Positions 9,174-19,166 of a DNA stretch of 52,334 bases are shown piece by piece. The stretch is from an uncultured archaeon (GTDB taxonomy: Archaea > Altiarchaeota > Altiarchaeia > JAFGQM01), in contig CAYMNU010000082.1 in NCBI GenBank assembly GCA_964391885.1, positions 1 through 52,334 on the forward strand, in the 5' to 3' direction. The notes under the pieces were generated by a model. It was not told where the DNA came from, did not search any database, and saw only the letters and a program-made list of their open reading frames with translations. The first letter of the stretch is position 1. Each line of letters begins with the position of its first letter. The position numbers and the translations under genes were made by a program.

Positions 9174-9928
9174 CTGCAAGAACTATCGCGATAGCGTCCG
9201 GCAAGGGCGGCGTGGGCAAAACCACTACCTGTGCCAACCTCGCAATCGCAATGGCCCAGCTCGGCAAGAAAGTGACCCTGCTCGACGCAGATTTGGCTAT
9301 GGCCAACCTGGGCATAACGCTCGGTATGGAGGAAACGCCGACCACACTTCACGAAGTTCTCGCCGGCGATGCTAACATAGAAGACGCGATATATGAGGGC
9401 CCTGCGGGCCTGAAGTTCATACCATCCGGCCTCTCGCTAGATACATTCCTAAGGATAGACGTCGAGAAGCTGAAGCCCGTTGTAGGCACGCTAATGGAAA
9501 ACACAGATATTCTTCTTATTGACGCTCCGGGAGGATTAGGGAAAAACGTTCTCGGCGCCATGATATCCGCGGCCGAGCTACTTATAGTAACAATGCCGGA
9601 CCCGTCTGCACTTGCTGACGCGCTCAAGACGAAGCTGGTCGGCAACAGGCTAAACATGGAAGTGCTCGGCGTCTGCCTGAACATGGTCAGGAGCGATAAG
9701 ACTGAAGTGACTCCTGAAGAGGTTTCAGTGCTGCTTGATTCGCCCATACTCCAGACAATACCCTATGACGACAACGTCAAGCGTGGCGCCGTCGAGGGCA
9801 AGCCCGTCATAATTAGGAACCCCGATAGCCCGGCGGCAAAGGCTTATAAGAAATTGGGGGCCATCATCGCAGGAGAAGAAGTCAAAGAGGAGAAAACAGG
9901 TTTCCTGCAGAAGCTCTTCAAGAAATAA
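9170..9928 (+). CDS. minD: MinD-family ATPase
   Basis: Deviant Walker A 'SGKGGVGKTT', 'DADLAMANL', C-terminal amphipathic 'GFLQKLFKK'. Confidence 0.93.
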   Translation: MTARTIAIASGKGGVGKTTTCANLAIAMAQLGKKVTLLDADLAMANLGITLGMEETPTTLHEVLAGDANIEDAIYEGPAGLKFIPSGLSLDTFLRIDVEKLKPVVGTLMENTDILLIDAPGGLGKNVLGAMISAAELLIVTMPDPSALADALKTKLVGNRLNMEVLGVCLNMVRSDKTEVTPEEVSVLLDSPILQTIPYDDNVKRGAVEGKPVIIRNPDSPAAKAYKKLGAIIAGEEVKEEKTGFLQKLFKK

Positions 9929-9955
9929 GGCTAATTTTTTATTTTTTGGTGAAAA

Positions 9956-10171
9956 ATGACAAAACCATTTGATTTATTGACAACCGCGTTGGGAAAGAAC
10001 ATATTGGTGAAGCTGAAGAACGGGATGGAGATCCGCGGCACGCTTGAAGCGTACGACCCGCACCTGAACCTTTCGATGAAGGGTGCAGAAGAGCTTGCCG
10101 ACGGTGAAGTGAAGAAGAAGCTCGGTGACCTTCTAGTGAGAGGGGACACTATAGTATATGTGTCGCCCTGA
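9956..10171 (+). CDS. Sm/Lsm archaeal protein (SmAP)
   Basis: Sm1 'GTLEAYDPHLNL' and Sm2 'LLVRGDTIVYVSP'; GGTGA SD upstream. Confidence 0.95.
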   Translation: MTKPFDLLTTALGKNILVKLKNGMEIRGTLEAYDPHLNLSMKGAEELADGEVKKKLGDLLVRGDTIVYVSP

Positions 10172-10173
10172 GT

Positions 10174-10273
10174 GTCCTGAGTCTTCAGTCTGCGGTCTTG
10201 GTTAAGGTTTTTCTAAGCGATAGTTCTAATTACTCGCTTCGGTCCTGAAGACCGGAGACTGCAGACCGCAGAC
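10174..10273. repeat. Inverted arrays of GTC/GAC heptamers (same family as 639-772)
   Basis: gtcctga-gtcttca-gtctgcg-gtcttgg (10174-10201) versus tgaagac-cggagac-tgcagac-cgcagac (10246-10273). Confidence 0.7.
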
Positions 10274-10279
10274 TTTCTT

Positions 10280-10413
10280 GGGCCCGTGGTCTAGCTCGGT
10301 TATGACGCCGCCTTTACAAGAACCCCTTTTCAGAAAAGGTGTTTCATCCCCAAAACGGGGTGAAGGGGTTTTAAATGAGGCGGAGATCGTTGGTTCAAAT
10401 CCTACCGGGCCCA
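10280..10413 (+). tRNA. tRNA-Val(UAC) with a 59-nt canonical intron (10319-10377)
   Basis: Acceptor GGGCCCG/CGGGCCC, anticodon stem CCGCC/GGCGG, TAC at 10315-10317, T-loop TTCAAAT. Perfect BHB (TTTA/TAAA helix, bulges CAA and TGA). No encoded CCA; one U-U mismatch in the T-stem. Confidence 0.95.
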
Positions 10414-10439
10414 CTTACCATATCCTAGCTTTAGCTCGT

Positions 10440-10651
10440 GGGCCCGTATCTCAAGGTCATTGGCAAAGAGGAAGTGTCCATCTTTCGATACCGGGCCCTG
10501 TGCACTTTAGCTCATGGGCCCTTACTTCGAGGTCATGTGCAGAGAGGCCGCATCCATCTCCCAATACCGGGCCCGTTTACCTATAGTTCAATGGGTCCGT
10601 ATCTCAAGGTCGTATGCCAAGGTTATGTTTCCACCCTTCGATACCGGGCCC
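10440..10651 (+). repeat. Three 59-nt hairpin units downstream of tRNA-Val (10440-10498, 10516-10574, 10593-10651)
   Basis: Ungapped alignment with 45/59 (unit 1 vs 2) and 47/59 (unit 1 vs 3) identity. Each unit ends in TACCGGGCCC, the tRNA 3' end. Confidence 0.9.
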
Positions 10652-10707
10652 GTTTGCCCCTAGCCTCGGTGCCCCTAAGCTTTTATAATCTCAGGCGTTA
10701 AGCTATC

Positions 10708-12597
10708 ATGTCCCTCGCAGACAAACTCGCGGATCTCTTCACCCTTGAGACCCTTGACAACATGTCTTGGAAGCTCTCCGACGGAGTCAAGCTTGGCGAT
10801 TTTTTCTATGACCGGGGCATACCCCCCCATATAATCTGGCTGCCTATAATCATAGCCGCAGTCCTAGCATACCTTTTTTTCTTTCCTGCCCCGCCGGACC
10901 TATGCGGCAACGGCATATGCGACCCGACGGAAAGCTGGATGACCTGCCCTCAGGACTGCCCGGCGCCCGACCCTACAGACATAAGTGTCAGGATAAGCGA
11001 AGATTTGCCGGCGGGAGAATACAGCGTGGGATTATATAATTCAGAGGGGCTTCCTATAACCGCCCTAACCGCATCGCCGGGCGAAAGCACGGACTTTGAG
11101 GGCTTCCGGGATACATCTGCAACATTGAAGGTCAACGGGCCGATGGGCGATGATTGGATCGCGGAGCTGGACTTAACACCGAGTGAAGACGCTTTTTTAG
11201 GGGATGATGAACCGGATAATGCAGAGAAACCTGATGAGAAGCCGGGTGAGAGCGGTTCAAGGATAATAGTGGAATTTCCCCAGGACTTTGAGAGAGAAAC
11301 AGGAGGCTCTGACGACCCGCTGACGGAGATTATAAGGGGGATGAGCGTAGGAGTCTGTCTAGGAGGTTACCTGAACAGCGAACCCACGCTCGAAGAAGCC
11401 TATCTCGCATATCTTATGGATATCCTGGACTCAATAAGCGTTACTGGAGTGCCCGCTCCAGATGCGGACACTAGATGCGCGGACATAAACAACGATGGAT
11501 ACCTAACAATCGAGGACCGTTTGTGTCTCTCGGGATCTATTGAAAATGAGTTCGCGAGCCTTGCTGAGTGTCCCAAATGCGTCCCCTTGCCTTTTGAAGT
11601 CTGCGGCGACGGCGTTGATAACAATTGTGACGGGCAGACTGATAGGGATGTCTATGATAACAAGAGGGAAGAGTTTTACCGCATAGGCGGCCAGATAGCA
11701 GATCTCTGCAGCTGCAACGAGCTCACACCCTGCGAGATGATGCGCGCAGACACTGGCCTGTTTAATATGCATTCAGAAGAGAACGTCAGCAGGTGCTCGT
11801 CGTTTGGCGGGGATTACCAATGGAGGCCCTATTCCGAATGGGCATGCGGCCCGAGCAAGGCGAATGAGGTGCTTACCTGCGGCGGGATGAGCTTCACCTG
11901 TGTCAATCACATGGGCGAATGGCTCTGGAACGGAAGCTGCATGCGCTACCCAGACATGAGCTACACCTGCGACTGCAATAATGATGGCTTCTGCGATTTG
12001 TGGGAAAATGCTACTAGCTGTGCGAACGACTGTCCCACCGCATTGTTTGATATGCTGTCAGCCCTTGAGACTGCCATATTAGAAGGGCGGGGTAAAGAGC
12101 CCGCAAACCTCTCTGCTGGCGAGTCGGTAAGCAGGGGTGAGATGCTCCTAAGGCTTGATTCTGTGCAGTTGTCCTTGGAATGCGATGCATCAGTGTGCTC
12201 CGGTATATCAGTATCTGGGGGTACTATATCGGCGGGGATGTATACTGAATTTCTTGCAGATGCAGTATGCGAGTTTGTGGCGGGAGAATATAGTTGTGTC
12301 TTGACAATAAGGGACCTGCTTTCCCAGCCCTCTGAAGACCTTGCCTCGCTGATAGAGAATGCATTGGATCATGGCACTTATAGCGGGACTATCTTCATGC
12401 CGGCGGGTGACGCCATAGAGGTGCTGCACATCGAGCACCTGCTAGGAATCTACCTAGATATTGGGTGTGAAGGTGATCCGTGCAGCAGCCTGAATTTAGA
12501 GGGAAGCAGTGCATCCGCCCTGGCCGATATAGTAGTTACTGCAGAAATATCCTGCACATCTGCTGCAATCCAGGTATGTGACGCCATTCTGAAGTAA
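10708..12597 (+). CDS. Membrane-anchored Cys-rich surface protein with dockerin-like and MopE-like motifs
   Basis: N-terminal TM, 'CGNGICDPTESWMTCPQDCP', Ca-loop 'DINNDGYLTIED', 'EVCGDGVDNNCDGQTD', acidic. Paralog of 19262-21730. Confidence 0.8.
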   Translation: MSLADKLADLFTLETLDNMSWKLSDGVKLGDFFYDRGIPPHIIWLPIIIAAVLAYLFFFPAPPDLCGNGICDPTESWMTCPQDCPAPDPTDISVRISEDLPAGEYSVGLYNSEGLPITALTASPGESTDFEGFRDTSATLKVNGPMGDDWIAELDLTPSEDAFLGDDEPDNAEKPDEKPGESGSRIIVEFPQDFERETGGSDDPLTEIIRGMSVGVCLGGYLNSEPTLEEAYLAYLMDILDSISVTGVPAPDADTRCADINNDGYLTIEDRLCLSGSIENEFASLAECPKCVPLPFEVCGDGVDNNCDGQTDRDVYDNKREEFYRIGGQIADLCSCNELTPCEMMRADTGLFNMHSEENVSRCSSFGGDYQWRPYSEWACGPSKANEVLTCGGMSFTCVNHMGEWLWNGSCMRYPDMSYTCDCNNDGFCDLWENATSCANDCPTALFDMLSALETAILEGRGKEPANLSAGESVSRGEMLLRLDSVQLSLECDASVCSGISVSGGTISAGMYTEFLADAVCEFVAGEYSCVLTIRDLLSQPSEDLASLIENALDHGTYSGTIFMPAGDAIEVLHIEHLLGIYLDIGCEGDPCSSLNLEGSSASALADIVVTAEISCTSAAIQVCDAILK

Positions 12598-15041: not shown

Positions 15042-16205
15042 ATGAACACTGTAGAAAAGCTGCAGATACTTGGCGAAGCCGCAAAGTACGACGTCTGCGC
15101 GAGCACCTCGTGCGGCGAGGGGGCAGTCAAAAATTCCAGAAAGGGCGAAAGCCGCATAGGCAGCCTCACGGGCCCGGGAATCTGCCACTCATTTGGGCCT
15201 GACGGAAGGTGCATATCCCTCTTCAAGGTGCTTATGAGCAACCGCTGCCAGGGCGACTGCAGGTACTGTACAAACAACTGCGAGACAGAGAGAAGGCGCG
15301 CCAGTTTTGAGCCCGATGAGTTGAGGGAAACCTTTTTAACGCTCTATCACCGCAACCTCGTAGAAGGCCTCTTCCTAAGCAGCGGCGTCGCAAAAAGCGC
15401 AGACGAGACTGAGCAGGGGCTTATAGAAATCGCAGAGAAGCTGCGCTCGAAAGATAATTTCCACGGCTACATCCACCTCAAAATAATGCCCGGAACATCG
15501 CGAAGCCTGGTAAGGCACGCAGCCGAAGTGGCGGACCGGGTCTCGCTGAACCTAGAGGCGCCCAACAGGCTGAGGTTCCAAGAGATTACAAGCACCAAAG
15601 ATTTCGGCATCGATTTGCTGAGGAGGATGCGCTGGGCGCAGAAGGCCGTCGACAAGCAAAAATCCGGCCAGACCACGCAGTTTGTGGTGGGGGCATGCGA
15701 CGAGAGCGACAGTGAGATACTCTCGACGGTAAGTGATGTTTACGACAAGCTGGAGCTGAAGCGCTCTTATTTCTCTGCCTTCATCCCGGTGTCGGGGACA
15801 AGGCTGGAAGGCCATGAGAAGACGCCGCTGATGCGCGAGCACCGCCTCTACCAGTGCGATTTCCTGATGCGCAAATACCACTTCCCTCTTGAAGAGCTCG
15901 TCTTTGGAGAGGGGGGCTGCCTGGAGCTTGGTAAAGACCCCAAGATGGCGATGGCCCTCGCAGATCCTGGCAGGTTTCCTGTGGAAATAAACGAAGCGGA
16001 TTATGGAGAGCTCCTGAGGGTTCCAGGATTGGGGCCCAACTGCGCATATCGCATAACCCAGGCGCGGGATGCCGGCCACAGGTTCAGGGACCTAAGCGAG
16101 CTCAGGAATCTGGGCGTGGTGCTCAAGCGTGCAAAGCCCTTCATCTCTGTCAACGGGGTCAGGCAGACAAGCCTGGCTTCATTCCAAAATGCTATCAGCG
16201 CATAA
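15042..16205 (+). CDS. Putative DNA modification/repair radical SAM protein (TIGR03916-like) with C-terminal HhH
   Basis: 'AAKYDVCAS', 'CQGDCRYC', 'EGLFLSSGV', 'REHRLYQCDFLMRKY', HhH 'LLRVPGLGP'. Confidence 0.9.
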   Translation: MNTVEKLQILGEAAKYDVCASTSCGEGAVKNSRKGESRIGSLTGPGICHSFGPDGRCISLFKVLMSNRCQGDCRYCTNNCETERRRASFEPDELRETFLTLYHRNLVEGLFLSSGVAKSADETEQGLIEIAEKLRSKDNFHGYIHLKIMPGTSRSLVRHAAEVADRVSLNLEAPNRLRFQEITSTKDFGIDLLRRMRWAQKAVDKQKSGQTTQFVVGACDESDSEILSTVSDVYDKLELKRSYFSAFIPVSGTRLEGHEKTPLMREHRLYQCDFLMRKYHFPLEELVFGEGGCLELGKDPKMAMALADPGRFPVEINEADYGELLRVPGLGPNCAYRITQARDAGHRFRDLSELRNLGVVLKRAKPFISVNGVRQTSLASFQNAISA

Positions 16206-16776
16206 AGAGCTGCAGCTGCGCCTGGAGTTCTATAAGAGGAGCAGGCATTTCAAGCCCCGTGTCGCAGAAAGGGTGCTCGCGCAGGCGAAAGACAAGGGCA
16301 TAGAATACGTACTTTCCAACGTTTCAAGCGAGGCGAGGGAGCTATATAAAGGTTCGCGCGAAGCCATCTGTGAAAGCCACAGGGCGAAGGGCTTCCTCAG
16401 ATTCAATGAAGCTGGCGGCATACTCGTGGCAAAGGCCGAGTTCGAACATGATATCATCGAGTGCCTGCTGCGGCATTTCATGGGCCGGTTTCCGCAAAAG
16501 AGAATAGTCATCATCTCAAACGGCGAGGCGAATATAGGAGAGAACGGTGAGATAAGCAAAGGGCCTGCAAACGAGTATCTATCCTCGGTTTACAACAAAG
16601 AAGCAAACGACGAGCTTTGGGACGCATTTTACAAGTCCCAATACATCGAGCCAAGGCGGAACCGCAAGCTTGCCATGAAAGCTGTGCCGAAGAAATACTG
16701 GAAGCGCTTCGGTATAAGGGAAGCTGTGAGTATAGACAAGGGCATCTTCGAAAAGACCTTGTTTGATTTTATATGA
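16189..16776 (+). CDS. DUF4130/TIGR03915-like DNA metabolism protein
   Basis: 'ESHRAKGFLRF', 'EHDII...HFMGRF', 'LWDAFYKSQYIEPRRN...PKKYWK'. Start reassigned to the in-frame ATG at 16189. Confidence 0.85.
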   Translation: MLSAHKELQLRLEFYKRSRHFKPRVAERVLAQAKDKGIEYVLSNVSSEARELYKGSREAICESHRAKGFLRFNEAGGILVAKAEFEHDIIECLLRHFMGRFPQKRIVIISNGEANIGENGEISKGPANEYLSSVYNKEANDELWDAFYKSQYIEPRRNRKLAMKAVPKKYWKRFGIREAVSIDKGIFEKTLFDFI

Positions 16777-16795
16777 GTTTTGTTTCTAATTCTAC

Positions 16796-18385
16796 GTGAT
16801 TTCTCTGGGCATAGAGGGTACTGCGCACACCCTTGGGATGGGCATAGTAGACGTCGAGGGCAATGTCCTGGCTAATGTCAATAAGACATATGTTCCAGAG
16901 GAAGGCGGCATCCACCCGAGAGAAGCATCTTGGTATATCGCAGACCAGTTCTCTTCCGCTTTGAAAGAGGCCCTTGAGGCAGCCAAGATGGGAAGGGAGG
17001 ACATAGACATTGTCTCCTTCTCAAAAGGCCCGGGCCTTGGTCCTTGTTTGACAAACACAGCAGTCGGTGCGCGCGCCCTTGCGCTCTCGCTGGGCAAGCC
17101 GCTTGTGGGAGTCAATCACTGCGTGGCGCATATTGAGGTGGGCAACATGATTGCGAGAAGGGAGTTCCCGGACTGGGGCCAGCCCCTGACGCTTTACGTC
17201 TCTGGCGCGAACACGCAGATAATAATGTTCAAGGACGGGAGGTATAGGGTCTTCGGGGAGACGCTGGACATAGGCCTCGGCAACATGTTAGACAAATTCG
17301 GGAGGCAGGCGGGGCTTGGGCACCCGGCAGGGCCGAAGATAGACAAGCTCGCCCAGGAGGGAAGAAACTACATAGATCTCCCTTATGTTGTGAAGGGCAA
17401 CGATTTGTCATACTCGGGCCTGCTCACCGAGGCAATCAAAAAGCTTCAGGGCAACAGGATGGAAGACGTCTGCTACTCGCTTCAGGAGACTGCGTTCGCC
17501 ATGACCATCGAAGCCGCGGAAAGGGCGCTCTGCCATTTGAAATCAGGCTCCCTGCTGCTTACGGGAGGAGTCGCCAACAACAGCAGGCTAAGGGAAATGG
17601 TCGGCATCATGGCAAAAGACAACGGCGTCATGTATTCGGTCCCAAAGGGCCTATGTGGTGACAACGGCGCCATGATAGCATGGACAGGTCTCGTGATGCA
17701 CGAGAACGGGGTGAGGACAGGCCTGGAAGAAAGTGCAATCGATCCGGGATACCGGACAGACCAAGTAGAGATAAGCTGGGCAAAACCCGGGAGCAGTATG
17801 GGAGCGCTTCCGCAGGGAATATGGAGAGGCGCCGAAGCAATTATAATGAGGGAAGGCGAACAAGTATCAAAGGAGCGCATGAAGAAAGAGTACCGGCTTG
17901 AGCAGATAGACGACCGCATAAGGAAGTCAAGGACTCGCAAAGAGCCCAAACTGCTCGCGGCAGCCCGCTCGGCGGGCATATCCACCCCGGAGGTGAAGAA
18001 GGTCATGGCAGAGGAATATAAGTTTTTCATGGAGTTCATAAGCGGCGAGCCGCTGTGCACTATCATTGAGGAAGAAGCGCACTATGCCGAAGACATGGGG
18101 CGCCTGGTCAGGAGGCTGCACGACGCCAACATAATACACGGGGACCTCACCACCTCAAACATCATAGTCAAAGACAGAAGGCTATTCTTCATAGACTTCG
18201 GGCTGGGCGGCATAAGCAGAAAAGCCGAGGACAAGGCGACAGACCTCCTTCTCCTGAAGAAGGCACTTAACGCCAACCATTCCTCAATGTTCAAGGAGCT
18301 TTGGGACGTTGTGATCTCTGCCTACGGCGAGTCCGAGGTCCTCGCGCGCCTGGAAACTGCGGAAAAGAGGGGGCGCTATTTATAG
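16796..18385 (+). CDS. kae1: Kae1-Bud32 fusion (KEOPS, t6A synthesis)
   Basis: 'LGIEGTAHT', 'GPGLGP', 'VNHCVAHIE', 'DNGAMIA'; kinase 'HGDLTTSN', 'IDFGLG'. Confidence 0.95.
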   Translation: MISLGIEGTAHTLGMGIVDVEGNVLANVNKTYVPEEGGIHPREASWYIADQFSSALKEALEAAKMGREDIDIVSFSKGPGLGPCLTNTAVGARALALSLGKPLVGVNHCVAHIEVGNMIARREFPDWGQPLTLYVSGANTQIIMFKDGRYRVFGETLDIGLGNMLDKFGRQAGLGHPAGPKIDKLAQEGRNYIDLPYVVKGNDLSYSGLLTEAIKKLQGNRMEDVCYSLQETAFAMTIEAAERALCHLKSGSLLLTGGVANNSRLREMVGIMAKDNGVMYSVPKGLCGDNGAMIAWTGLVMHENGVRTGLEESAIDPGYRTDQVEISWAKPGSSMGALPQGIWRGAEAIIMREGEQVSKERMKKEYRLEQIDDRIRKSRTRKEPKLLAAARSAGISTPEVKKVMAEEYKFFMEFISGEPLCTIIEEEAHYAEDMGRLVRRLHDANIIHGDLTTSNIIVKDRRLFFIDFGLGGISRKAEDKATDLLLLKKALNANHSSMFKELWDVVISAYGESEVLARLETAEKRGRYL

Positions 18386-18999: not shown

Positions 19000-19072
19000 G
19001 CCCCAGTAGTGTAGTGGCCTATCATACAGCCCTGTCGAGGCTGTGACCCGGATTCGAATTCCGGCTGGGGCG
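19000..19072 (+). tRNA. tRNA-Asp(GUC)
   Basis: GCCCCAG/CTGGGGC acceptor, CAGCC-CTGTCGA-GGCTG anticodon arm, CCGGA-TTCGAAT-TCCGG T-arm, discriminator G. Confidence 0.97.
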
Positions 19073-19100
19073 TCCTACATGTCTTAGCGTAGCCTCGGCA

Positions 19101-19166
19101 CCACCAGCCTTGCGCCAAGATCATATGCCTAGTTGATGTATCCACCTTGTCGTTCCGGCTGGGGCG
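19101..19166 (+). repeat. Single unit downstream of tRNA-Asp, homologous to the tRNA-Val units
   Basis: Core 19116-19146 is 25/31 identical to 10605-10635. Ends in TTCCGGCTGGGGCG (19153-19166), identical to tRNA-Asp 19059-19072. Confidence 0.85.

Follow-up and report, generated by a model that had tools for sequence, protein, structure and literature searches.

How does a tRNA gene come to be followed by a row of short segments, each of which ends with that gene's own 3′ tail? The question is raised by the tRNA-Val(TAC) locus of the window, i.e., the whole stretch of DNA analyzed here, which is the 52,334-nucleotide (nt) contig CAYMNU010000082.1 of an uncultured archaeon (assembly GCA_964391885.1). 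The contig (C82) belongs to a 1.13-Mb metagenome-assembled genome (MAG) that is 84% complete and is referred to below as the source genome (G000). Directly behind tRNA-Val lie three units of 59 nt, which an earlier note on this DNA had described as tRNA-acceptor-mimicking elements. The observation proved to be real and larger than first described, and its interpretation is partly supported. Indeed, the units belong to an undescribed family of modules of ~75–90 bases that follow most tRNA genes of one uncultured archaeal family; these modules are a new variant of tRNA-linked repeat elements with unexplained target copying. The three Val units are best explained as old, partly decayed members of these family-specific, tRNA-anchored foldback modules. 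The preferred reading, to which we assign a probability of roughly 45%, is that the modules arise at the DNA level, by insertion or duplication at the junction between T-loop positions 59 and 60, and that they copy the tRNA tail, leave the tRNA intact, and are probably transcribed together with it.

The tRNA genes were located with ARAGORN (introns allowed as an option) and the Rfam tRNA model (RF00005), the units with a covariance model of the unit (R1), and the conserved core with a profile search (nhmmer). The Val locus consists of the following features.

10280–10413, + strand: tRNA-Val(TAC) gene (Rfam tRNA model, 49.7 bits; matched by ARAGORN only with introns allowed)
10280–10318, + strand: exon 1 of tRNA-Val(TAC) (RF00005, 49.7 bits; ARAGORN with introns)
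10319–10378, + strand: intron of tRNA-Val, 60 nt, at the canonical position, with a two-hairpin module inside
10379–10413, + strand: exon 2 of tRNA-Val (Rfam RF00005; ARAGORN)
10414–10439, + strand: trailer G1 number 1, CTTACCATATCCTAGCTTTAGCTCGT, which fits the family consensus cTTACTT..CTTAGCnTAGCTCG
10440–10498, + strand: unit 1 (R1, 64.6 bits; nhmmer, E = 2.3e-12)
10499–10515, + strand: trailer G1 number 2, shortened, TGTGCACTTTAGCTCAT
10516–10574, + strand: unit 2 (R1, 52.1 bits), with G14-C45 where units 1 and 3 have A14-U45
10575–10592, + strand: trailer G1 number 3, GTTTACCTATAGTTCAAT
10593–10651, + strand: unit 3 (R1, 51.3 bits)
10652–10675, + strand: trailer-like remnant at the end of the array, GTTTGCCCCTAGCCTCGGTGCCCC, not followed by a unit (from the sequence)

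The intron of tRNA-Val identifies the genome as that of an archaeon. The coordinates and letters of the three ungapped units were confirmed. The units recur with periods of 76 and 77 nt, in agreement with Tandem Repeats Finder (period 76, 75% matches, score 194). As the earlier note had stated, each of them starts with GGG(C/T)CC(G/T)TA and ends with the tRNA-Val tail TACCGGGCCC, i.e., the 10 nt preceding the discriminator A (10403–10412), and the spacers share TAG(C/T)TC. Unit 1 comprises a 5′ arm, GGGCCCGTA, which is an inverted copy of the tail, a core at ~10449–10488, and a 3′ arm, TACCGGGCCC, which is a direct copy of the tail. The 5′ arm of unit 3, GGGTCCGTA, gives rise to a U·G pair at helix position 4. 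The 11-mer ATACCGGGCCC occurs exactly three times, with a one-mismatch form, CTACCGGGCCC, in tRNA-Val, against an expectation of 0.76; two of 100 shuffles reach four occurrences of such an 11-mer. The Val units retain no more than 10 nt of tail and count among the more decayed copies. After the terminal remnant comes the TTTTATAA box that belongs to the gene at 10708. Such trailer-only endings recur in other arrays.

The units are not confined to tRNA-Val. When the 300 nt downstream of every ARAGORN tRNA in the source genome were inspected, the same architecture was present behind most of them, and the genome contains 18 significant core copies by profile search and 19 units by R1. The earlier note had proposed running a covariance model over this and related genomes. 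Eight genomes of the same GTDB family, comprising four genera, were set beside 53 other genomes of the class, which here equals the entire phylum; G-numbers below denote genomes, and L-numbers fetched loci or population contigs. Units are present in all eight family genomes, with 1–19 in each, and in none of the 53 others, so that the modules are restricted to one family. The family numbers at least 63 units in seven genomes. For these 63 units, taken from the source genome and the fetched loci, 56 have a same-strand tRNA upstream, and the distance from the tRNA end to the core clusters at 27–39, 107–133, and 158–265 nt, for units that are first, second, and third (or interrupted) in order. 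The tRNAs concerned are of ~17 specificities. No tRNA was detected for the other seven units, which are located at contig ends, beside runs of N, next to multi-intron tRNAs missed by the detectors, or in one orphan array. A scan of positions 9800–11200 with cmscan (E up to 10) returned no Rfam family matching the units, only tRNA and chance matches, and a published description of such modules was not found in the literature searched. Among the matches listed in a pattern scan beyond the phylum are apparently unrelated ones, mostly from cyanobacteria and other bacteria.

Each module consists of four parts. It begins with a direct copy of the adjacent tRNA from the T-loop 59/60 junction to the discriminator, often extended by 1–12 nt of pyrimidine-rich trailer. 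The remaining trailer, G1 (..CTTAGCnTAGCTCG), comes next and leads to S1, a 9–12-nt inverted copy of tRNA positions 64–73. The last part is CTTAT and a conserved hairpin ending in ..GCCA, which abuts the next 'T60'; its conserved letters are CAAGGTCAT...TCCACCTTG, written at length CAAGGTCATATGCC..AGAGG..GTGTCCACCTTG. The units are 59–66 nt in size and lack CCA. The start of the direct repeat is marked by the final T-loop base or the final two ('T' or 'AT', A59/T60). From there it spans the 3′ strands of the T-stem and the acceptor as well as the discriminator and in many cases extends into the trailer; at tRNA-Ile(GAT) it is 25 nt long. In the source genome, 11 of 23 tRNAs have a perfect 14/14 copy of their positions 60–73, starting 71–136 nt downstream, and 13 of 23 have a copy of at least 12/14; none of 413 non-cognate comparisons reaches 12/14. 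A clear example is provided by the second module-bearing tRNA of the window.

19000–19072, + strand: tRNA-Asp(GTC) (ARAGORN)
19073–19100, + strand: trailer G1 behind tRNA-Asp (..CCTACATGTCTTAGCGTAGCCTCGGCA), from the first base past the discriminator (from the sequence)
19101–19166, + strand: Asp-tailored unit (R1, 64.2 bits)

The 3′ end of the Asp unit, TTCCGGCTGGGGCG (19153–19166), is a 14/14 copy of positions 60–73 of tRNA-Asp (19059–19072).

The other end of the unit is tailored to the tRNA as well. Complementarity of S1 with the tail (local score of at least 7) is seen in 74% of cognate pairs but only 8% of non-cognate pairs, and at least eight of the ten outer-helix positions are paired in 43 of 62 units. 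To this extent, the acceptor-like closing stem proposed by the earlier note stands. Its 5′ arm, however, has a different origin from that of an acceptor, and the helix contains mismatches, which are mostly pyrimidine-pyrimidine and, in the copies inspected, often at helix positions 2–3. At wobble pairs of the tRNA, the base found in S1 is complementary (Watson-Crick) to the 3′ strand in nine cases, identical to that of the tRNA 5′ strand in one, and different from both in four. The 'acceptor 5′ strand' is thus an inverted duplicate of the tail and does not duplicate the 5′ end of the tRNA. Among first units, the fit of S1 to the tail of the tRNA itself (plus 1–3 trailer bases) is better than its fit to the tail copy of the unit in 25 cases and worse in three, with ten ties, whereas in later units there is no preference between the tails (5, 5, and 7); this difference probably reflects decay of the distal copy. 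A general rule that S1 is tied to the preceding rather than the following tail fits the first units (25 vs. 3), fails in later ones (5 vs. 5), and was rejected. The 9–12 matched bases per locus are beyond the reach of point mutation, which indicates that the target tail was copied when the modules were made. The tRNA-Ala units (G000:C8, G000:C76, L045, L047, L054, and L065) are peculiar in that G3·U70 is never kept, position 3 being A, C, or T; in the source genome, moreover, the Ala units have a core of another kind, with two 'stem' halves that form a direct repeat and not an inverted one.

The hairpin between the two arms was analyzed in an alignment of 61 copies from seven genomes (48 positions). 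At 16 of the 48 positions, conservation reaches 90% or more, in the segments AGGTCAT, GC, and TCCACCT. A structure of 17 pairs, consisting of a 10-bp inner stem and an apical stem, is 80.5% paired, compared with 28–41% in slid registers. It contains 96 double-change cells, compared with 36.9 ± 4.5 in shuffles (0/500). This covariation comes from the inner stem (CAAGGT/ACCTTG) and includes unit position 14 with 45. The compensatory change noticed within the Val array is therefore real, with A-U in units 1 and 3 and G-C in unit 2, but it does not belong to the stem that had been drawn for it. That stem (27–32 with 39–45; A27-U45/G27-C45) is 61.2% paired in the 61 copies vs. 60.2% in shuffles, with similar values in slid registers, and is not supported. 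The apical stem is 71.7% paired in the consensus, yet this is no better than shuffles, and it has no covariation support of its own. RNA under selection usually shows an excess of G·U over A·C in its stems. The inner stem has 15 G·U and 19 A·C cells, i.e., no G·U excess, which fits a constraint or a copying process that is symmetric between both DNA strands. Overall, G·U and A·C cells number 125 and 42, and the excess lies wholly in the apical part (110 vs. 23); given that this part does not covary, the excess is weak evidence for RNA. The covariation itself is proof of a constraint on the hairpin or of arm-to-arm copying, and it suits RNA and folded or cruciform DNA alike.

Units are born, lost, and exchanged. 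Core identity averages ~65% within a genome, between genomes, at the same tRNA, and at different tRNAs alike; there has been no recent burst, and a clean signal of orthology is lacking. Between G000 and G001, units are found at the same tRNAs, though the remaining intergenic DNA is no longer alignable. Near-identical tandem units (97%) occur behind tRNA-Val(GAC) in G002, and truncated or decayed units are found at the Glu, Val(GAC), and Arg(TCT) tRNAs of G000 and at tRNA-Gly of G004. In G007, a Gly-type segment (tail, G1, S1, and core) lies inside an array of a Thr/Met-type tRNA, with its junctions exactly at the core/T60 boundaries, and the inserted core is 97% identical to a core of the Gly array. 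This mosaic shows that arrays at different tRNAs swap material at the core/T60 junction or via the shared core. The population is present in lake-sediment communities (JGI samples 3300077317, 3300077319, 3300077522–3300077525, 3300077562–3300077567, 3300077993, 3300078755, and 3300001533; run SRR2989655). At the Val locus, every copy in the population contigs has three units. Two haplotypes of this locus differ in 22 of 2644 columns, and nine of the 22 differences lie within 24 nt of G1 number 1 (10414–10437); their packing looks like the replacement or conversion of a patch and not like point mutation. An inversion of G1 between the inverted arms was considered as the cause of the patch and rejected, since the two G1 versions are not reverse complements. 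One further difference, T/C at 10481, restores the core consensus.

Any explanation must meet three facts: a homologous cassette at ~17 tRNAs, direct and inverted copies of each tRNA's own tail, and the constant 59/60 junction. Serial mini-insertions at the tRNA 3′ end, one of the two possibilities raised in the earlier note, fit this anatomy best. In the mechanism proposed here, modules would arise by duplicative insertion or recombination at T-loop 59/60, either of the tRNA gene or of an earlier module. The inserted piece would open with the same tail as the displaced one, which would keep the tRNA gene intact and make the event harmless. Arrays would grow by repeated events and by tandem duplication, trade segments with arrays at other tRNAs via the shared hairpin, and then decay. 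The trailers contain no TTTTATA-type box, unlike the regions upstream of this organism's genes and tRNAs; given that no unit has such a box and that all of them point the same way as the tRNA, the units are most likely transcribed by read-through as part of the tRNA trailer. Judging from this arrangement, co-transcription with the tRNA is probable. Within the 3′ trailer, S1, the core, and the tail copy would fold as one long hairpin.

Several observations weigh against this mechanism. To our knowledge, no enzyme or mechanism writes a direct and an inverted copy of its target beside a fixed cassette. No candidate for the copying enzyme was identified in searches of the eight family genomes for reverse transcriptase, tyrosine integrase, and Y1 transposase; every genome is an incomplete MAG (63–87% complete). 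An RVT_1 reverse transcriptase is found in none of the eight, and a PF00589 tyrosine integrase is found in four but not in G000, G001, G004, or G006. Y1_Tnp (IS200-type) also occurs in four of the eight genomes. The only Y1 transposase of the source genome belongs to an ordinary IS200 element (G000:C35:22775–23207, minus strand), in which it lies between the hairpins CCCCGACTT..AAGTCGGGG and CCCCGGACT..GTCCGGGG; these end hairpins are unrelated to the core, and a link to IS200/IS605 elements or to transposases associated with repetitive extragenic palindromes (REP; the transposases are termed RAYTs) was rejected. No filled and empty alleles of a single unit were found in the 16–18 population contigs per locus, so that insertion is inferred rather than seen; together with the missing enzyme, this is the chief weakness of the preferred reading. 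The core raises a further difficulty: 16 positions are at least 90% conserved despite an overall identity of ~65%, and the copies do not group by genome or by tRNA. Purifying selection acting on every copy, for a function that may be exerted as RNA, suits this conservation at least as well as selfish spread does, and the apical G·U excess likewise hints at sense-strand RNA. Retro-copying as the source of the tail copies was rejected, given the lack of RVT_1 and given that S1 contains post-discriminator trailer bases and no complement of CCA.

An RNA-level explanation was the other possibility raised in the earlier note, and we consider it rather unlikely. According to it, the units would be putative processed tRNA-like small RNAs, in which a co-transcribed S1-core-tail hairpin mimics an acceptor/T-arm, is cut by RNase P and tRNase Z, and is perhaps tagged with CCA. 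The function would reside in the 59–65-nt RNA or in the processing itself (punctuation, termination, or insulation of the tRNA transcript), with the core as a putative protein-binding site. The constant location of the units on the tRNA strand, directly downstream of the tRNA, agrees with this, as does an outer helix that is largely paired in most of them. RNase P RNA is encoded in the source genome (G000:C43:5040–5354, 111.6 bits) and in six of the eight family genomes; conservation at specific sites and compensatory changes are maintained through four genera, whereas neutral spacer DNA is saturated; the apical part is rich in G·U on the sense strand only; a pyrimidine- or U-rich tract follows the unit hairpin as it follows the tRNA; and the boxless trailers leave read-through from the tRNA promoter as the sole evident source of transcription. 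However, the units have no T-loop or elbow, the T-loop being replaced by the 10-bp stem and a conserved loop, and the Rfam tRNA model does not match them. The pyrimidine-pyrimidine mismatches at positions 2–3 and the loss of G3·U70 in Ala units are also at odds with acceptor mimicry, and neither the inner stem, which lacks a G·U excess, nor the apical stem, which lacks covariation, behaves as expected. In addition, several units are decaying or truncated and some tRNAs have none, so any function would be dispensable at a given locus. Processing does not explain how ~17 tRNAs acquired tailored copies, and the same story of origin would still be needed. A more modest proposal, neutral tandem duplication behind tRNA-Val with no wider meaning, would account for the alikeness, equal length, and tandem order of the Val units, and tandem duplication has also occurred at tRNA-Val(GAC) of G002. 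Yet the same core stands behind ~17 other tRNAs in eight genomes with its ends matched to each, and it contains invariant positions and compensatory changes. Purely local duplication is therefore refuted as a full explanation, and the idea retains next to no probability.

Two further proposals start from the 59/60 junction. The modules might be scars or miniature remnants of tyrosine integrases of the T-loop class, with the tail copies as att sites and the trailer and hairpin as a retained attP arm. Integrases that cross over in the T-loop reportedly yield repeats from the T-loop to the tRNA end, as Williams is said to have described in 2002, and the direct repeats resemble these. Moreover, tRNA-Asp is occupied in some strains of this very population by an element that encodes a PF00589 integrase of 421 aa (L217:10556–12430, JGI 3300077319; L218, L219, L203, and L204). 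A 1.2-kb cargo gene is present or absent right behind a tail copy at tRNA-Thr(TGT), and partial tRNA copies derived from integrating elements are common in archaea (PMC9897764; PMC3293823). At the Asp locus, identity with the window stops one base past the discriminator (...GGCTGGGGCGT), and the element has displaced the Asp unit; every assembly ends ~430–485 nt past the integrase gene, leaving the far end (attR) beyond the contigs. The end of this element shares nothing with G1 or the core, and the integrase link was rejected on that ground. Since the space between tail copies is merely ~60 nt, contains no open reading frame (ORF), and is homologous at ~17 tRNAs, since an inverted tail copy is not a product of integration, and since PF00589 is limited to half of the family genomes, such scars are decidedly improbable. 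Very improbable, in turn, is a T-loop intron at 59/60 with a duplicated 3′ exon, in which the tRNA would mature by a 3′ cut at the first tail or by splicing that joins A59 to the next tail. The modules do join the tRNA precisely at 59/60, presumably a site of non-canonical archaeal introns. Real T-loop insertions and the 'B' cassettes described below also occur at 59/60-type junctions in the family, at least one real tRNA of G006 having such an insertion. On inspection, though, there is no bulge-helix-bulge (BHB) motif or relaxed hBH form: the 5′ side of the T-loop, TTCRAA, makes no 4-bp helix with the core's 3′ end (..ACCTTGCCA), and the predicted fold is a three-way junction. Arrays of three units and trailer-only endings are left unexplained, and splicing is unnecessary, as the first tail already completes the tRNA. 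Finally, the hairpin scaffold, the last 14 nt of the host tRNA, and their mirror image could form an undescribed system that reads and writes tails. It would serve as a guide or decoy against T-loop-class att sequences of integrating viruses and plasmids, or as substrate for a new insertion enzyme, directed by hairpins and copying its target, that enters tRNA genes harmlessly at 59/60. This too is quite unlikely.

Compared with known systems, the modules combine familiar traits in a different way. In Escherichia coli, the 178-bp repeats of tyrT/tyrV and the rtT RNA (RF00391) are tandem, lie 3′ of the tRNA, and contain copies of its 3′ end; little is understood of their function. The earlier note's analogy to them is fair at the organizational level, because both sets consist of tandem, co-oriented units directly 3′ of a tRNA with a tail copy in each. 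However, RF00391 did not match in the cmscan search (E up to 10). The archaeal units are 59–66 nt rather than 178 bp, have an inverted tail and a covarying hairpin, lack CCA, and stand behind most tRNAs of a genome rather than in one operon. Plant mitochondrial t-elements and the mascRNA of MALAT1 retain a fold resembling a T-arm or cloverleaf, and they are demonstrably processed. The acceptor-like helix closed by the 5′ and 3′ ends of the units is similar and could recruit RNase P and tRNase Z, but the archaeal units lack a T-loop, and their helix is often mismatched. Repetitive extragenic palindromes, including their mosaic arrangements (bacterial interspersed mosaic elements, BIMEs), and the hairpin ends of IS200/IS605 insertion sequences (IS) are handled by Y1 (HUH) transposases or RAYTs. 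They likewise are short, imperfect palindromes with invariant bases, compensatory stem changes, and many dispersed copies, and a TTAC-like motif (CTTAC/CTTAT) stands beside the hairpin arms; in the archaeal modules, by contrast, the outer arms are copied from the adjacent tRNA, and the copies are strictly tRNA-linked.

Repeats of the attR type (e.g., 44 bp) flank 9–23 kb of foreign DNA that includes an integrase gene (PMC9897764; PMC3293823). The direct repeats described here resemble them in duplicating the 3′ part of a tRNA, starting in a tRNA loop, 3′ of an intact gene; they differ in that repeats of 10–25 nt surround ~60 nt of a conserved non-coding cassette at ~17 tRNAs, with an inverted copy in addition. 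For non-canonical BHB introns of archaea, transposition between tRNA genes has been proposed (PMC4090602; PMC3218864). The T-loop 59/60 junction recalls them, and intron-rich tRNAs and mobile-looking intron modules are numerous in the family, but the tRNA-linked modules have no BHB at their junctions, their 3′ exon is duplicated, and splicing is not required. Two simpler identities were rejected. A miniature inverted-repeat transposable element (MITE) or another IS-derived element does not fit, as the ends CTTAC.. and ..TTGCCAT are not inverted repeats and the direct repeat, ranging from 10 to at least 25 nt, is not of fixed length. A tRNA pseudogene does not fit either, as there is no match to the tRNA model and the interior is a single hairpin common to all specificities.

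tRNA genes are classic landing sites of mobile DNA, and those of archaea are often split, permuted, and intron-laden, for reasons that are debated. In the lineage studied here, one element recreates whatever tRNA tail it stands behind, both in direct and in inverted form, at most tRNA genes. If the insertion mechanism is true, it would imply a target-copying DNA transaction beyond any known enzyme and would offer a concrete way in which tRNA fragments, T-loop introns, and split tRNA pieces could come about. If the units act as RNA, they would form a new class of tRNA-tethered structured RNAs whose ends borrow the identity of the neighboring tRNA. On either reading, the modules supply an annotation rule for pseudo-acceptor hairpins and a defined, conserved core of 48 nt for protein pull-downs.

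Other fragment-and-hairpin arrangements occur in these genomes. The orphan array mentioned above (G000:C35:30600–30900, minus strand) has four tail copies, AATCCCAGCCTCAGCG, two units, and a mini-hairpin, but no complete tRNA. Its first tail copy adjoins a block of heptamer repeats, as the 3′ piece of a split tRNA would; a 5′ partner was not found in the source genome, which is 84% complete. An array in G006 belongs to a multi-intron tRNA with a T-loop insertion, and an archaeal signal recognition particle (SRP) RNA gene (103.9 bits) lies ~170 nt downstream of it (L061:80–347, G006:C39). Upstream of tRNA-Ser genes (G000:C69:26760–26900; C5; L039), copies of the first 8–10 nt of the tRNA (GCCGAGGT / GCCGAGGTGG) are joined to small hairpins, so the 5′ side of some tRNA genes is likewise wrapped in fragment-plus-hairpin pieces.

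A second cassette, 'B', consists of CACG, a GGTTCRC hairpin, GTGCACA, a second hairpin, and CGTG, and is located at A59|T60 of partial T-arm copies. It was found at G000:C8:15936–16043, in C5 (behind tRNA-Pro), and in C23, C85, C86, and C69 of the source genome, as well as inside units and in a tRNA-Gly intron. Hairpins of this type number ~25 in the source genome, and none is in the window. At G000:C8 (~15960–17200), a B-type unit stands behind tRNA-Thr(TGT), and its tail copy is directly followed by a 1.2-kb segment with a gene of 374 aa (no Pfam match on record); this segment is present in G000 and L224 and absent from L223. The unit flanking this segment shows ~12% strain difference, compared with ~4% nearby.

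Two features of the Val locus itself recur elsewhere. Heptamer blocks lie upstream of tRNA-Val at 10174–10273, first of the GTCTTCN type and then of the NNAGACN type, and could pair with each other around TTCTAAnTAnnCGCTT. The same heptamers are found upstream, downstream, and within the introns of tRNA loci of the source genome, with NNAGACN before tRNAs and its complement GTCTNNN after arrays, so that leader and trailer could form long stems. The two-hairpin module of the Val intron, CCCTTTTC..GAAAAGG followed by TTCAYCCCCAAAA..GGGGTG, is common to introns of Arg, Thr, Trp, and Ala tRNAs, and it looks like a mobile intron family. Within it, a 24-nt stretch (10332–10355) is 100% identical in other families of the class, and at G036:C37:7584–7834, three copies of the Val-type intron module lie 108 nt apart.

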